This document shows, piece after piece, positions 45,103 through 49,449 of a DNA stretch of 57,160 bases (position 1 is its first letter; each line of letters begins with the position of its first letter). The translations under genes and the position numbers were made by a program. Source of the DNA: a virus; the IMG/VR virus record IMGVR_UViG_3300037493_005727, positions 133,091-190,250 of that record, one strand, 5' to 3'. The notes beneath the pieces are model-generated. The model was not told the origin of the DNA, did no database searches, and worked only from the letters and a program-made list of their open reading frames with translations.

Positions 45103-45627
45103 TTACGAGGGCAACTGGTACCGGGACGTTTCAGGGTCCCAGAGCAGCAGCTCGTGATCCCACCAGGGCATCATCCCCTTGGTGCCCTCGTCGAGGGCGG
45201 CGGCCATGCGGTCCACCCTGACCTGGGGGACCCCGTGGGTGTTGCGCGGACCGGCGATGGCCGGGTCGATGCGGAGGGTCATGATGACCACCTCCGCCCC
45301 GAACGCCTGCCCGACCGCCACGTAGGGGGCGATCTCAGCCACCGACGTGGACGTGTTGTCCACCACGATGACCGGCTCGGGGACGGGGTTACGGACCCCG
45401 GAGATCTTGGCCAGCTCGCGCTGGGCATACCCGTCCTGCAGGTGCTCGATGACCGAGAGCAGGCACGCCCCGTGAGCCGCCGGGAGCTTGGCGGGGTTGA
45501 AGACGTACTTCTCCCCTTCCATCATCCCGTCGTCCGCCGACGCGATGAGGTCAGCCTTGGGGAGCTCCTTCCGGGCGAAGGTGCTCTTCCCGCTGCCGGG
45601 GATGCCTCGAAGAATGATAAGGCGCAT
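45103..45627 (-). CDS. P-loop kinase (AAA_33 / polynucleotide-kinase-like)
   Basis: ATG 45627 'MRLIILRGIPGSGKSTFA' (Walker A at the extreme N-terminus as in T4 Pnk-type kinases), 'VIVVDNT' (Walker B-like), 'RNTHGVPQVRVDRM'. Confidence 0.7.
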   Translation of the reverse strand: MRLIILRGIPGSGKSTFARKELPKADLIASADDGMMEGEKYVFNPAKLPAAHGACLLSVIEHLQDGYAQRELAKISGVRNPVPEPVIVVDNTSTSVAEIAPYVAVGQAFGAEVVIMTLRIDPAIAGPRNTHGVPQVRVDRMAAALDEGTKGMMPWWDHELLLWDPETSRYQLPS

Positions 45628-45711
45628 GGGTGGTCCTTTCTCGGCTTTCACCGAAGTGAGACGCAGTGCCAATAACTAGCCACCTCCGGCTCCCATGCAG
45701 GAGCTTGCGTC

Positions 45712-45744
45712 GGGTTCAAGTACTAATACCCTAAAAATGATCAG
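45712..45744 (-). promoter_or_regulatory. class-1 promoter-like motif copy
   Basis: Minus strand reads CTGATCATTTTTAGGGTATTAGTACTTGAACCC. Confidence 0.5.
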
Positions 45745-45752
45745 TTTTAGGG

Positions 45753-46124
45753 TTAGGCCGCCCCGACGTGTCCGAGGTACTCCTCGCACTTCTTCAATTC
45801 TCTCTCTTCCTCCGGGGTGAGCTCACCCTTCTGTTTCTTCTCTAGAAACAAGCGGTATCTCCTTTCAACGCTGACGTAGAGGTCCATCTTGAAGATCGCT
45901 GCGTCTGCCTCGTTGGCGGTCTTCCCAAGCAGCCGCTTCTCCAGCCCGTACAGAAGGTATGGTCTCATCCGCTCCGTTTGCATGACGGTCAGTTCGAAGA
46001 CTTCATCCCCGTACCCCTCGAGAGTCACGTACACCGTGCTGAGGTCACGCTCATCCGCAACGATGTTGACGGTCTTGACACAAGCGTCTGGAGCAACGGC
46101 CGTTGCTGTTCTATGCTCTGCCAT
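45753..46124 (-). CDS. hypothetical protein
   Basis: 123-aa ORF with no motif. Confidence 0.55.
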   Translation of the reverse strand: MAEHRTATAVAPDACVKTVNIVADERDLSTVYVTLEGYGDEVFELTVMQTERMRPYLLYGLEKRLLGKTANEADAAIFKMDLYVSVERRYRLFLEKKQKGELTPEEERELKKCEEYLGHVGAA

Positions 46125-46151
46125 TCAGCGTCTCCTTCCTGGTGAGAGTTC

Positions 46152-46997
46152 ATGTTCTACCGCCTCGGACAGCATCATGCTCTCGCCGCATTAGGCCTCG
46201 AAAAGCTCGCGGCGATTCTACGCCCAGGGATTGGGGGTCCCGCGGCGGAGATTCAACGGCACGTCGACACCGGTAACTTCGCTGAAGCTTCCAGGCTGGC
46301 TCGGCAACCAGGGGCTTTCGTGGATCAGCAGCACCTCAGCCCTTTTGACCTCGGACACCACATCCGGCATCTCGGGGCGGGGGTCGAAGGCAGCGCGGAA
46401 CTGATGGTCCACCCCCAGCACGGCGTCAACGCCACGAAGATCTACGACCCTCGGGGGATCACTAAGCGTCGTGGGGTTGAACTCAAAGGGGAGGCGTTCA
46501 ACCGTATCCAGAACTTCGAACCCAGGTCTACCAGAGATCGTGAGCTACAGCAGCATCTCGTACGCCTCCTTGGGCAGACAACGCCTCCCAGGCCGACAGA
46601 CGCCGGGATCCCGACGGTTCTCCCAGCCCACCACTTCGAATTCGTGCCTGGGCATCACGGGGATCATGTTCTACCCGCTGACCAGGAAGCCCGTTTCACG
46701 ACGCTGCAGGGGCAAATGCGCGACTTCATCCCCAGGGCTACCGGCGGTATGACGGTCCACGACACCAACAAGCGGGACAACTGGATCATCGGTCCTGATG
46801 GCCGCCCCACTCTGGTCGATTTCTCCCTTACCAGCGCTCCGGGCGCTTCTTGGGGGGACATCCAGCAGAAGGCGCTCCCCGGGGCGGACCCTAAAACAAT
46901 CTTCGCCCGCCACAGGGAAGGGTTTGATTCCGCCGAACCGTCCGACGACCCACGCTACGCCGAACCCCCGCCGGTGAGGGCGGGGGCCCGACGTTAG
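46152..46997 (+). CDS. protein-kinase-like fold protein with N-terminal FY-G motif
   Basis: 'LGAGVEGSAEL' (Gly loop-like), 'NATKIY' (VAIK-like), 'VHDTNKRDNWII' (catalytic loop-like), 'LVDFS' (DFG-like). N-terminus 'MFYRLGQHHALAALGLEKL'. Confidence 0.45.
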   Translation: MFYRLGQHHALAALGLEKLAAILRPGIGGPAAEIQRHVDTGNFAEASRLARQPGAFVDQQHLSPFDLGHHIRHLGAGVEGSAELMVHPQHGVNATKIYDPRGITKRRGVELKGEAFNRIQNFEPRSTRDRELQQHLVRLLGQTTPPRPTDAGIPTVLPAHHFEFVPGHHGDHVLPADQEARFTTLQGQMRDFIPRATGGMTVHDTNKRDNWIIGPDGRPTLVDFSLTSAPGASWGDIQQKALPGADPKTIFARHREGFDSAEPSDDPRYAEPPPVRAGARR

Positions 46998-47398
46998 CTT
47001 TCCAGCGTTGAAACCCAGCTGCGCAGCTTTTCTGGGGTCAGCTCGTTGAAGGGGACACGGGTGACATCGAACCCCGCGGCCGCCAGGATCGTCACCATCT
47101 TCATGGCTCCGGGGGTGTTCATGGAGTGCACGAGAACGGGGACTCCTTGATCGAGCTTCTGCGCAACGGCCTTTGCCACGACGCCCCCGTTGGTGAAGGC
47201 GCCGTCAGCCGTGACCCCCTGCTTGTACAGGTCGTAGTCCAACAGGACCCCGTGGTAGGTGTCCGCCTCGTCCTTCTTGAGGATGGCCAACGCAGCGCCG
47301 CCTGAACGCGCCCAGACCACCCGCACCTCTTTGGGGAGGTGCGCCGTGAAGAAGGCATGCCGGTCAGAGTCATCCTCGACCAGCAGGAGGCGGATCAT
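46994..47398 (-). CDS. stand-alone response-regulator receiver (CheY-like) domain
   Basis: ATG 47398 'MIRLLLVEDDSDRHAFF', 'HGVLLDYDL' (phospho-acceptor Asp position), 'PVLVHSMN'. The conserved Lys position appears as 'TRVPF'. Confidence 0.65.
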   Translation of the reverse strand: MIRLLLVEDDSDRHAFFTAHLPKEVRVVWARSGGAALAILKKDEADTYHGVLLDYDLYKQGVTADGAFTNGGVVAKAVAQKLDQGVPVLVHSMNTPGAMKMVTILAAAGFDVTRVPFNELTPEKLRSWVSTLES

Positions 47399-48236: not shown

Positions 48237-48247
48237 AGGCTCCCAGG

Positions 48248-48553
48248 TTACGGGGAAACGCGGATCGCGCTCTTGCCCGTCAGAACGTTCTTCAACTTCG
48301 CGCCGGGGGCGTTGATGGTCCAGGGGTAGACCCCCTCACCGTGGCCGCGGCTCGTCACCGAGACCTTGTTCCCGTCCTCGTCGCGGAAGTACAAGACGTT
48401 GCCCTGGGCCATCCGCGTCGCCTTCTTCTCCAGGGCCTTGAAGCTCGCCTTGGTACCGCCTTGGGCGATCCACAGCGCCAAGGCGTCGTCGATCCAGGTA
48501 CCGCCGGTACGGCGGAGGCGGGACCAGCCAACCATCTCTAAGAGGTCGAACAT
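48248..48553 (-). CDS. hypothetical protein
   Basis: Internal ATG 48553 after AGGGAGAAAG: 'MFDLLEMVGWSRLRRTGGTWIDD...'. Confidence 0.55.
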   Translation of the reverse strand: MFDLLEMVGWSRLRRTGGTWIDDALALWIAQGGTKASFKALEKKATRMAQGNVLYFRDEDGNKVSVTSRGHGEGVYPWTINAPGAKLKNVLTGKSAIRVSP

Positions 48554-48587
48554 TGGTGTATCTTTCTCCCTGCTTCCAGGGTGTAGG

Positions 48588-48620
48588 GGTTCAAAGTCTA
48601 ATACCCTAAAAAAGATCACT
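48588..48620 (-). promoter_or_regulatory. class-1 promoter-like motif copy
   Basis: Minus strand reads AGTGATCTTTTTTAGGGTATTAGACTTTGAACC. Box 2 ends 34 nt before ATG 48553. Confidence 0.5.
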
Positions 48621-48633
48621 TTTATGACCCCCA

Positions 48634-48654
48634 GGGACCCCCTTTCGGGGGCCC
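48634..48654 (-). other. GC hairpin of the repeated intergenic module
   Basis: GGGACCCCC TTTC GGGGGCCC, a near copy of 47811-47834. Confidence 0.6.
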
Positions 48655-48666
48655 CCGGAACCGCCT

Positions 48667-49449
48667 TTACTTGGTAAAGTGGCGAACGGTGCCTTTGAGG
48701 CGAATGGGAGCGACCACCCCCCAGCCCTTCTTGAGCAGTTCATTGGAGTAGACGGGGCTGCTCACGCACGAAATGGTGACGTGGTGCAGCTGCCCCAGAC
48801 TCGGGGCGTTGTAGGGCTCAGGCAGCGTGACCTTTACCGCCTGCCCCTTGTCGTCGGAGGCCTCCCCGACGACCTCGAACTCCACGACCTTCTCGAGGAG
48901 TGGCTCAAAAGCCTTGATCAGTTCAGGCCCAGGCTTGAACGCCAAGGTCACGTGATGCCCAAAGACCTTCGGGTGGATGGGCGGGAAGGCCTTGAGCAGG
49001 GCGTCCTTGGAAGGCTCGTCCAAGAAGATCGCCGTGTAGACGGGCTTCGGCTGAACTGGGATTCTGAGCAGGGCCAGCGCCTTCTCTGGCACCCCGTCGC
49101 AGCTGGGGTGGCAGTCGTGCTTCTCCAGGGCGGCAATGGCCGCCATGATTCGTTCGTCCGAAGCTCTCCAGCCAGCTCGGGAGATCCGGTCATTCTCCTC
49201 GGCCTTGGTCACCTGCTCCGCGAAATACTTCACCTTCTCATCGGCCAACTGCTGGCCCAGTTGCTCGTCTTCGAGCTCCTTGATGCGCTTGTGCAAGCGC
49301 GCCTTGGTCTCCATGAAGATCGTTTCATGGTCTCGGATGAGCTCCGCCTGGTCGCGGATGGTCTGTTTCATCTCCCGCTCCCGCATCTTCAGCACGATGA
49401 CGTCACCCATCGCTTGTCCAAGCCCGATAGCAGGATCTCCTTCACTCAT
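48667..49449 (-). CDS. 2H phosphoesterase (LigT/CPDase-like) with N-terminal coiled coil
   Basis: Two H-x-T/S motifs, 'GHHVTLAF' and 'LHHVTISC', about 70 aa apart in the C-terminal half. The N-terminal ~110 aa are heptad-like. Confidence 0.7.
   Translation of the reverse strand: MSEGDPAIGLGQAMGDVIVLKMREREMKQTIRDQAELIRDHETIFMETKARLHKRIKELEDEQLGQQLADEKVKYFAEQVTKAEENDRISRAGWRASDERIMAAIAALEKHDCHPSCDGVPEKALALLRIPVQPKPVYTAIFLDEPSKDALLKAFPPIHPKVFGHHVTLAFKPGPELIKAFEPLLEKVVEFEVVGEASDDKGQAVKVTLPEPYNAPSLGQLHHVTISCVSSPVYSNELLKKGWGVVAPIRLKGTVRHFTK

Follow-up and report, generated by a model that had tools for sequence, protein, structure and literature searches.

A putative RNA end-healing gene cluster in a large uncultured phage

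The DNA considered here is a stretch of 57,160 nucleotides (referred to below, at its full length, as the window) that occupies positions 133,091 to 190,250 of the IMG/VR virus record IMGVR_UViG_3300037493_005727, and our subject is a cluster of genes within it that could process the ends of broken RNA, probably of tRNA. An initial annotation, made from the letters alone, had named three genes as an RNA end-healing set: a P-loop kinase, a 2H phosphoesterase and a calcineurin-like metallophosphoesterase. All three are present as open reading frames (ORFs) on the minus strand, and independent gene calls on public contigs with the same DNA agree with them (Table 1). Next to the kinase lies a further conserved gene, p150, and between the kinase and the 2H gene lies one for cREC (cyclic-phosphate processing receiver), both of which the annotation had missed. 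We give a probability of roughly 60% to the reading that a large uncultured phage carries here a module for healing RNA ends, its functions being deduced from homology, fold and genomic context. A JGI contig of 190,250 bp encodes identical proteins, and the window is therefore only part of a larger genome.

Table 1. Features of the cluster and of the neighbouring minus-strand block, in window coordinates
Feature	Position	Strand	Basis or remarks
2H phosphoesterase, predicted RNA 2',3'-cyclic phosphodiesterase	48667-49449	-	260 aa from first ATG
2H protein, N-terminal coiled coil (residues 6-109)	49123-49434	-	single long helix (model), heptads
2H protein, compact catalytic domain (residues 137-260)	48670-49041	-	HxTxxF, HxT, P-x-Y-S-N-x-L
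110-aa protein upstream of cREC	47395-47727	-	gene call; no Pfam/PHROG match
cREC, 134 aa, predicted phosphoesterase	46994-47398	-	Pfam PF20274
281-aa gene between kinase unit and cREC	46152-46997	+	gene call
123-aa protein directly upstream of kinase	45753-46124	-	gene call; no family match
P-loop kinase of the polynucleotide kinase (PNK) clade, 174 aa, predicted RNA 5'-OH kinase	45103-45627	-	Pfam AAA_33, PDB profile, synteny
p150, 150 aa, directly downstream of kinase, third member of the trio	44548-45000	-	conserved family
Calcineurin-like metallophosphoesterase	30036-30776	-	Pfam, PHROG
tRNA/PTH2 island	35639-37137	mixed	ARAGORN, Rfam, Pfam
PTH2	35639-35932	+	Pfam E=1.6e-5
tRNA	35994-36069	+	ARAGORN, Rfam
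tRNA	36072-36146	+	ARAGORN, Rfam
227-aa P-loop-like gene between tRNA groups	36146-36829	-	AAA_18 E=2.6e-4
tRNA	36908-36978	-	ARAGORN, Rfam
tRNA	36979-37060	-	ARAGORN, Rfam
tRNA	37064-37137	-	ARAGORN, Rfam

The kinase, the 2H phosphoesterase and p150

The kinase matches Pfam AAA_33 over the curated cut-off (E=6.9e-9) and also phrog_2071. The Walker A sequence GIPGSGKST that had been read in it is there, although it starts at residue 8 and not at residue 7; it satisfies the pattern GxxxxGK[ST] (G8-IPGSG-K14-S15) and is nearly invariant across 57 homologues. A PDB search with the single sequence gave matches to the C. thermocellum Pnkp kinase domain and to Pnkp1 that did not extend beyond their P-loops. 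The family profile built from the 57 homologues gave T4 Pnk as its best match (E=5.6e-12), over the whole kinase domain (positions 13-144 to residues 1-145), followed by PSTK (4.5e-11) and the C. thermocellum Pnkp kinase domain (5.3e-11) and, further down, by the Mucorales RNA 5'-OH kinase (4.6e-8), mammalian PNKP (1.5e-7) and Pnkp1 (3e-6). Besides Walker A, the family conserves the motifs S-A-D, VVDNT and R-N-x-H-G-V-P (RNxHGVP). The aspartate of S-A-D, D32 in the window protein, is at least 90% conserved among the 57 homologues and is aligned by HMMER with the Asp-Asp of T4 Pnk ("NINRDD") and with the aspartate of "ISSD" in C. thermocellum Pnkp, a residue that we take to be the catalytic general base for the 5'-OH. 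Judged by its sequence, the kinase is a member of the polynucleotide-kinase clade of P-loop kinases, and the T4 Pnk-type identity first proposed for it stands.

The same comparison bears on the possibility that this enzyme is a nucleoside monophosphate (NMP) or deoxynucleoside monophosphate (dNMP) kinase of nucleotide metabolism, and that phosphoryl-transfer enzymes have come together here by chance. In neighbourhoods of the V5 type, the homologous gene has been labelled "a nucleotide kinase" (PMC9503650), and the PHROG label says only "ATPase". Adenylate, guanylate and uridine kinases, however, match the profile weakly and at the P-loop only (E>1e-4), as against the full-length matches to polynucleotide kinases, so that in the profile comparison with the PDB the kinase did not group with the NMP or dNMP kinases; moreover, the catalytic aspartate typical of polynucleotide kinases is conserved, and so is the synteny described below. 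We regard this as very improbable, and as the least probable of the readings that we weighed.

In the 2H protein, which on the public contig was called shorter (247 aa, start 49410), the two H-x-T/S motifs that had drawn attention to it are found as HHVTLAF from residue 165 and HHVTISC from residue 222, with H166, T168, H223 and T225 unchanged throughout 18 homologues. F171 is also conserved, which gives the first motif the form HxTxxF, a feature of ThpR (PMC4201822), and a P-x-Y-S-N-x-L motif is shared as well. In the AlphaFold2 model (mean predicted local distance difference test score, pLDDT, 89.6), residues 6-109 form one long helix and residues 138-258 a compact alpha/beta domain, the latter mostly with pLDDT >90. 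The helix shows heptad periodicity, with hydrophobic residues at 60-63% of a/d positions and about 32% elsewhere, which agrees with the coiled coil of about 110 residues earlier described as fused to the domain. The length of the coiled coil differs among close homologues and it is missing in distant stand-alone ones; its likely role is to oligomerise the 2H enzyme or to anchor it.

By structure comparison, the model has the bilobed 2H fold and resembles CNPase, Acb1, drCPDase, plant CPDase and LigT, with further matches to MHV ns2, VP3, AKAP18, ASCC1 and Usb1, and its closest structural neighbour falls in the CNPase/Trl1-CPD clade (PF08302, PF05881). The isolated domain of the window protein has no match in Pfam; seven of eight family members match the Pfam family tRNA_lig_CPD (PF08302), the best of them with E=4.5e-7. 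An exhaustive profile search placed 3,637 representative clusters in the family. Most members stand alone and have 125-160 aa; in some the domain is joined to the "Swiss Army Knife" RNA-repair phosphatase HAD_SAK_1, and other fusions involve a PolyA_pol/CCA-type nucleotidyltransferase, topoisomerase I together with HAD_SAK_1, or ChaC. The fold match and the tRNA_lig_CPD matches of the family mark the protein as a genuine 2H enzyme, as initially claimed, whose modelled fold is of the CNPase/Trl1-CPD type and whose HxT motifs are both intact.

Enzymes with this fold need not act on RNA repair intermediates. The 2H protein could instead be an anti-signalling enzyme that destroys cyclic (oligo)nucleotide messengers of immunity in the manner of Acb1, 2'-5' oligoadenylate-type signals, or RNA fragments that the host senses through their 2',3'-cyclic phosphate, in which case the kinase would be only loosely related to it. 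That 2H domains can target oligonucleotide signals (PMC9503650), that stand-alone homologues in jumbo phages lie away from repair genes, and that no ligase was found nearby, in the window and its flanks, would all fit such a role. Against it, sequence links the family to the CPD domain of tRNA ligase, the domain is found fused to RNA 3'-end repair modules, and its synteny with a PNK-type kinase is kept in four phages; we consider an anti-signalling role unlikely.

This synteny includes a third gene. Comparison with related uncultured phages indicates that the core consists of the 2H gene, variable small genes, the kinase and p150, rather than of the kinase and cREC. The trio of 2H, kinase and p150 is syntenic in four divergent phages, namely the window phage, L012 (an 88-kb contig), L015/L016 and L025, the last being more distant (kinase 44% identical, p150 found by a hidden Markov model, HMM, with E=2.7e-30). 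We looked for a cultured relative with the trio and found none; for the closest cultured kinase, that of Variovorax phage V45v66, a stretch of 10 kb around the gene held no partner. The identity of p150 is 63-65% in L012 and L015, and in L015 it exceeds the conservation of the kinase. The 17 members of the p150 family are at least 48% identical and share invariant C45, C47, H61, R69, R78, K83, R105 and D113 and a YQG sequence. Its pattern C45-x-C47 ... H58-x2-H61 suggests that p150 could bind a metal. The model of p150 is all-helical, and neither sequence nor structure revealed a relative in Pfam, PHROGs, NCBIfam, the PDB or BFVD.

cREC and the genomic company of the kinase

The cREC protein matches PF20274 with E=3e-7 and 31.4 bits, the curated cut-off being 27. 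An alignment of two sequences only, those of the window and of Seunavirus, has the motifs DD, DxDL and VH(S/T)xN in common and keeps the receiver-type acidic active-site residues. The Pfam scans, which covered the whole window (43 + 37 = 80 ORFs), found no histidine kinase family, and cREC sits between the 2H gene and the PNK-type kinase, a position that strengthens the RNA-repair reading. Elsewhere the gene is found between Rnl1 and the kinase (Seunavirus) or upstream of Nudix, Rnl1 and the kinase (PD06). Among the four phages that carry the trio, cREC is present only in that of the window and is absent from L012 and L015; it is an accessory component, dispensable within the clade. Neither cREC nor the 281-aa gene beside it gave a tblastn match among deposited phages.

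The presence of cREC raises another possibility, that it and the 2H enzyme process NAD+-derived metabolites of ADP-ribose (ADPr), such as ADP-ribose 1''-2'' cyclic phosphate, in an NAD+/ADPr conflict system and do not act on RNA ends. Iyer et al. predict action of both 2H and cREC on 1''-2'' cyclic ADPr phosphate and report cREC only from NAD+-linked and RNA-repair contexts (PMC9503650). The published scheme nevertheless places the ADPr role downstream of RNA repair, and no KptA/Tpt1, sirtuin, Macro, Nudix, NADAR or ART family was found among the 80 ORFs of the window, so that we hold this reading to be distinctly unlikely.

The kinase family is present in 479 deposited phage genomes according to tblastn, and we sampled its neighbourhoods in six cultured lineages. 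The gene order is Rnl1, cREC, kinase in Salmonella Seunavirus NINP13076; Metallophos_2, a small ORF, Rnl1, kinase in Pseudomonas phage vB_PseuGesM_254; Rnl1, a 102-aa ORF, kinase in Acidovorax ACP17, with HD and metallophosphoesterase genes downstream; phosphoesterase, a small ORF, Rnl1-like, kinase in a Nitrincola phage; cREC, other genes, Nudix, Rnl1, kinase in the phi92-like PD06; and kinase, tRNA nucleotidyltransferase in Vibrio 11895-B1. Thus, an Rnl1-type RNA ligase lies upstream of the kinase homologue in five of the six lineages, and these five ligases are mutually homologous and all carry the K-x-(D/N)-G motif. Neighbourhoods of this Rnl1/cREC/kinase type have been described by Iyer et al. 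(PMC9503650).

These neighbourhoods also allow the question of whether the kinase acts on DNA ends, together with a DNA ligase in repair or replication, its proximity to the 2H gene being incidental. Its best profile matches, T4 Pnk and mammalian PNKP, also act on DNA; Seunavirus, PD06 and Pseudomonas phage 254 each have an annotated DNA ligase no more than about 1-3 kb from the kinase; and L015 encodes, 9 kb from its 2H gene, a LigD-type DNA ligase (1-785) whose N-terminal part is a LigD phosphoesterase domain. Yet it is the Rnl1-type RNA ligase that lies upstream in five lineages, and a tRNA nucleotidyltransferase that lies directly downstream in the sixth, and synteny with a cyclic phosphodiesterase fits RNA only, because DNA cannot form 2',3'-cyclic ends. 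A kinase devoted to DNA ends therefore seems highly improbable to us. This reading and the other three rivals considered so far, NMP kinase, anti-signalling enzyme and ADPr processing, are all less well supported than RNA end-healing.

A possible healing pathway and the question of the ligase

If the cluster is an RNA end-healing module, its action would begin after an anticodon nuclease, a toxin or some other ribonuclease of the host has cut tRNA or other RNA and left 2',3'-cyclic phosphate and 5'-OH ends. The 2H enzyme would open the cyclic phosphate into a 2'-phosphate with a 3'-OH, a chemistry known from CNPase, Trl1-CPD and ThpR (for ThpR, PMC4201822), and the kinase would phosphorylate the 5'-OH, with Asp32 as general base. 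The leftover phosphate would perhaps be removed by cREC or by another phosphatase, and sealing would be the task of an RNA ligase, ATP-dependent and encoded in another part of the genome of about 190 kb, or of a component not yet recognised. The phage strategy centred on tRNA-targeting defence that the initial annotation suggested is a conjecture, one that fits published comparative genomics (PMC7824862, PMC9503650).

Several observations weigh against end-healing, and the first of them concern the ligase. Healing without an ATP-dependent ligase would be useless or even harmful, since healed ends are not substrates of RtcB. The search for a ligase covered the window and its flanks (-10 kb, +6.4 kb), some 74 kb of a contig that measures at least 190 kb. 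The annotation had seen no RNA ligase in the window, and the Pfam scan of its 80 ORFs likewise finds none, nor any DNA ligase or RtcB family; the Rnl1 HMM finds none in the window, in the flanks or at the relatives' loci, and neither does tblastn; and the precomputed Pfam matches of the flanks include no ligase, the left flank containing an RNA polymerase fragment and unknown genes and the right one tail-fibre-like genes. The lack of Tpt1/KptA (PTS_2-RNA), sirtuin, Nudix and Macro families in the same scans of the window, which argues against ADPr processing, also counts here, as no such enzyme was found that could take care of a 2'-phosphate. A second group of observations concerns the enzymes themselves. 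The match of the window 2H protein to Pfam tRNA_lig_CPD (E=0.053, 13.4 bits) stays under the cut-off of 23, its domain profile matches no PDB chain by sequence, and the stand-alone homologues in Agrobacterium and Sinorhizobium jumbo phages adjoin ClpX and IF-3 and not repair genes. For three of the kinase relatives, those of L026, L027 and Variovorax V45v66, no partner could be recognised over 7-10 kb. None of these phage families has a member with a known enzyme activity, and cREC, predicted computationally, is without biochemical characterisation (PMC9503650).

Where no classical ligase is needed, the trio could be a self-contained system, and two versions of this can be envisaged. In one of them p150, which is clade-restricted, possibly metal-binding and rich in invariant polar residues, would be a new sealing or adaptor factor. 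In the other, RNA ends would be remodelled and not repaired: conversion of the cyclic phosphate to a 2'-phosphate and of the 5'-OH to a 5'-phosphate would leave fragments that host RtcB could no longer reseal or, alternatively, that cyclic-phosphate sensors (regulators of the RtcR/CARF type) could no longer detect. To a ligase-free system of either kind we attach a low probability. In L012 the slot between the 2H gene and the kinase holds a gene for a 313-aa protein (10913-11854) that we considered as a hidden ligase and rejected; it is a collagen-triple-helix-repeat protein with a lipoprotein-like N-terminus. With cREC and the 281-aa gene in the window and the collagen-repeat gene in L012 all in the same slot, the space between 2H and kinase appears to be a hotspot of gene insertion. 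The 110-aa protein encoded upstream of cREC has a counterpart of 46.5% identity in L015 (10726-11088), where it is likewise situated between 2H and kinase. A few kb downstream of the module, both relatives carry a gene for an AcrVA2-like protein (PF26125; L012 15120-16103, L015 16344-17327).

Neighbouring features and comparison with known systems

The 281-aa gene overlaps cREC by 4 nt at their 3' ends. Its motifs LGAGVEGSA...ATKIY and VHDTNKRDNWIIGPDGRPTLVDFS, together with weak matches to NCBIfam Ser/Thr kinase models (E ~1e-3), suggest that it could have a divergent fold like that of Ser/Thr protein kinases. We considered it as a part of the module and rejected this, as it is absent from the relatives, weakly kinase-like and without a match in the PDB or in phages; it probably stands outside the module.

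The metallophosphoesterase is a calcineurin-like phosphoesterase, as had been stated (Pfam Metallophos E=4.5e-11; phrog_1649 E=7.7e-52), but its inclusion in the healing set was not borne out. It lies 15 kb away, shows no specific similarity to RNA-end phosphatases (its sole PDB match is the uncharacterised Metallophos protein 6unc, and its NCBIfam matches are weak), and its family, present in 195 phage genomes, occurs in mixed contexts. We compared these contexts in seven lineages: the gene is within or near tRNA arrays in three unrelated large phages, Mx1 (L009 4995-5741), CcrColossus (L011 4989-5750) and S-CRM01 (L022 3983-4765); in PBECO4 and KVP40 it has a DNA ligase as its neighbour or close by, and in AF3 and D181 it adjoins neither. 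A recurrent link with tRNA arrays, which Mx1 and CcrColossus had suggested, was dropped when it held in three of the seven; it could be a weak trend and is no rule. Because of the distance and the mixed contexts, the metallophosphoesterase cannot be assigned to the healing set, and its membership is unproven.

The window has a G+C content of 60% and three strand blocks: up to about 29.2 kb structural genes occupy the plus strand, between about 29.3 and 49.9 kb comes a block on the minus strand, and from an M15 endolysin gene at 50198 the plus strand is used again. The minus-strand block also houses the tRNA/PTH2 island that the initial annotation had linked with the healing enzymes, and ARAGORN and Rfam confirm its five tRNAs; PTH2 is present too, as a protein of 97 aa that covers only positions 47-114 of the Pfam model. 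PTH2 is directly upstream of the two plus-strand tRNAs, with which it forms a small plus-strand unit (35639-36146) inside the minus-strand block. The second of these tRNAs (36072-36146) has an abnormal two-base anticodon in ARAGORN ("tRNA-???") and yet scores 52 bits as a tRNA in Rfam. The 227-aa gene between the tRNA groups is not PTH2. It has only a weak AAA_18 P-loop match (GGLPRTGKS); hydrophobic N- and C-terminal segments lie on either side of this match, and no match was found in the PDB or PHROG. The remaining Pfam-recognisable genes of the block are two, one for DUF3846 (33981-34286, minus strand, E=1.7e-25) and one for a DnaJ protein of 299 aa (41795-42694, minus strand) with its DnaJ domain at the C-terminus (E=6.4e-7). 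A scan of the cluster for promoters and terminators was uninformative.

Megablast against deposited phages gave no match for the window phage, and the best identity of its structural proteins is about 30%. On the parent contig, 10 kb upstream of the window, a protein (L005 119-1918) matches RNA polymerase Rpb1 domain 5, and on L027, a contig with a related kinase, a gene at 775-5460 encodes a 1561-aa fused beta/beta'-like polymerase. From these two observations, the window phage and its relatives probably use multisubunit RNA polymerases of their own.

Much of what we describe has precedents in comparative genomics. For large phages, tRNAs, PTH2, polynucleotide kinase, 2H, cRec and calcineurin-like phosphoesterase have already been laid out as RNA repair (PMC7824862, section 3.4.9), and the window resembles those jumbo phages in having 2H, calcineurin-like phosphoesterase, tRNAs and PTH2 in one genome. 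With the predicted phage RNA-repair neighbourhoods it shares the kinase family (Seunavirus and phi92-like homologues are 30-31% identical, E ~1e-8) and the cREC family. In the type represented by Escherichia phage V5 and Proteus phage Mydo, a sirtuin, a T4-like RNA ligase, cREC, a nucleotide kinase and MazG come together, with or without a calcineurin-like phosphoesterase (PMC7824862, PMC9503650). In the window, by contrast, neither an RNA ligase gene nor one for a sirtuin, MazG or Nudix adjoins the cluster, and its core is 2H, kinase and p150 instead of ligase, cREC and kinase, with cREC dispensable and the 2H domain joined to a coiled coil.

Characterised enzymes offer a second comparison. 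A T4-Pnk-like kinase combined with a CNPase/Trl1-type 2H domain is also what is found in Trl1 (KIN-CPD), the lancelet PNK/CPDase and vertebrate CNPase (PMC5434554), and the expected product, a 2'-phosphate with a 3'-OH, would be the same; unlike them, the window has these activities in separate genes 3 kb apart and not in one polypeptide, its 2H domain has about 125 aa against about 215-250 aa and is below the tRNA_lig_CPD cut-off, and neither a ligase domain nor a Tpt1 was found in the window. With T4 Pnkp and Rnl1, the window has in common the full-length match of its kinase to the T4 Pnk kinase domain and the same presumed purpose, which in T4 is to counter PrrC. In T4, however, a HAD (DxDxT) phosphatase that forms one protein with the kinase heals the 3' end, whereas in the window this step would fall to a 2H enzyme encoded apart from the kinase, alone or together with cREC, and would yield a 2'-phosphate; nor was an Rnl1 found in the window or its flanks. 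E. coli ThpR, of the LigT type (PMC4201822), is likewise a stand-alone end-healing 2H protein with HxTxxF, including the base-stacking phenylalanine, but the second motif of the window protein has no Arg of HxTxxR, and a coiled-coil extension is present. What is new here is the configuration, with no adjacent ligase, a CNPase-like 2H protein with a coiled coil and a clade-specific p150; the overall idea had already been predicted.

Phage countermeasures against tRNA- or RNA-cleaving defences have, to our knowledge, been worked out in biochemical detail only for T4, with Pnkp and Rnl1; many combinations of healing and sealing have been predicted by comparative genomics, and we know of no test of phage healing based on 2H or cREC. 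The cluster adds a variant to an already predicted class, and no new principle. It does offer a compact and well-defined test case, in which a pairing like that of Trl1 and CNPase is split into separate genes and joined by cREC and a clade-specific partner. If it proves active, the 2H domain of about 125 aa would be a minimal enzyme of the CNPase type and a link between the tRNA-healing enzymes of phages and those of eukaryotes.

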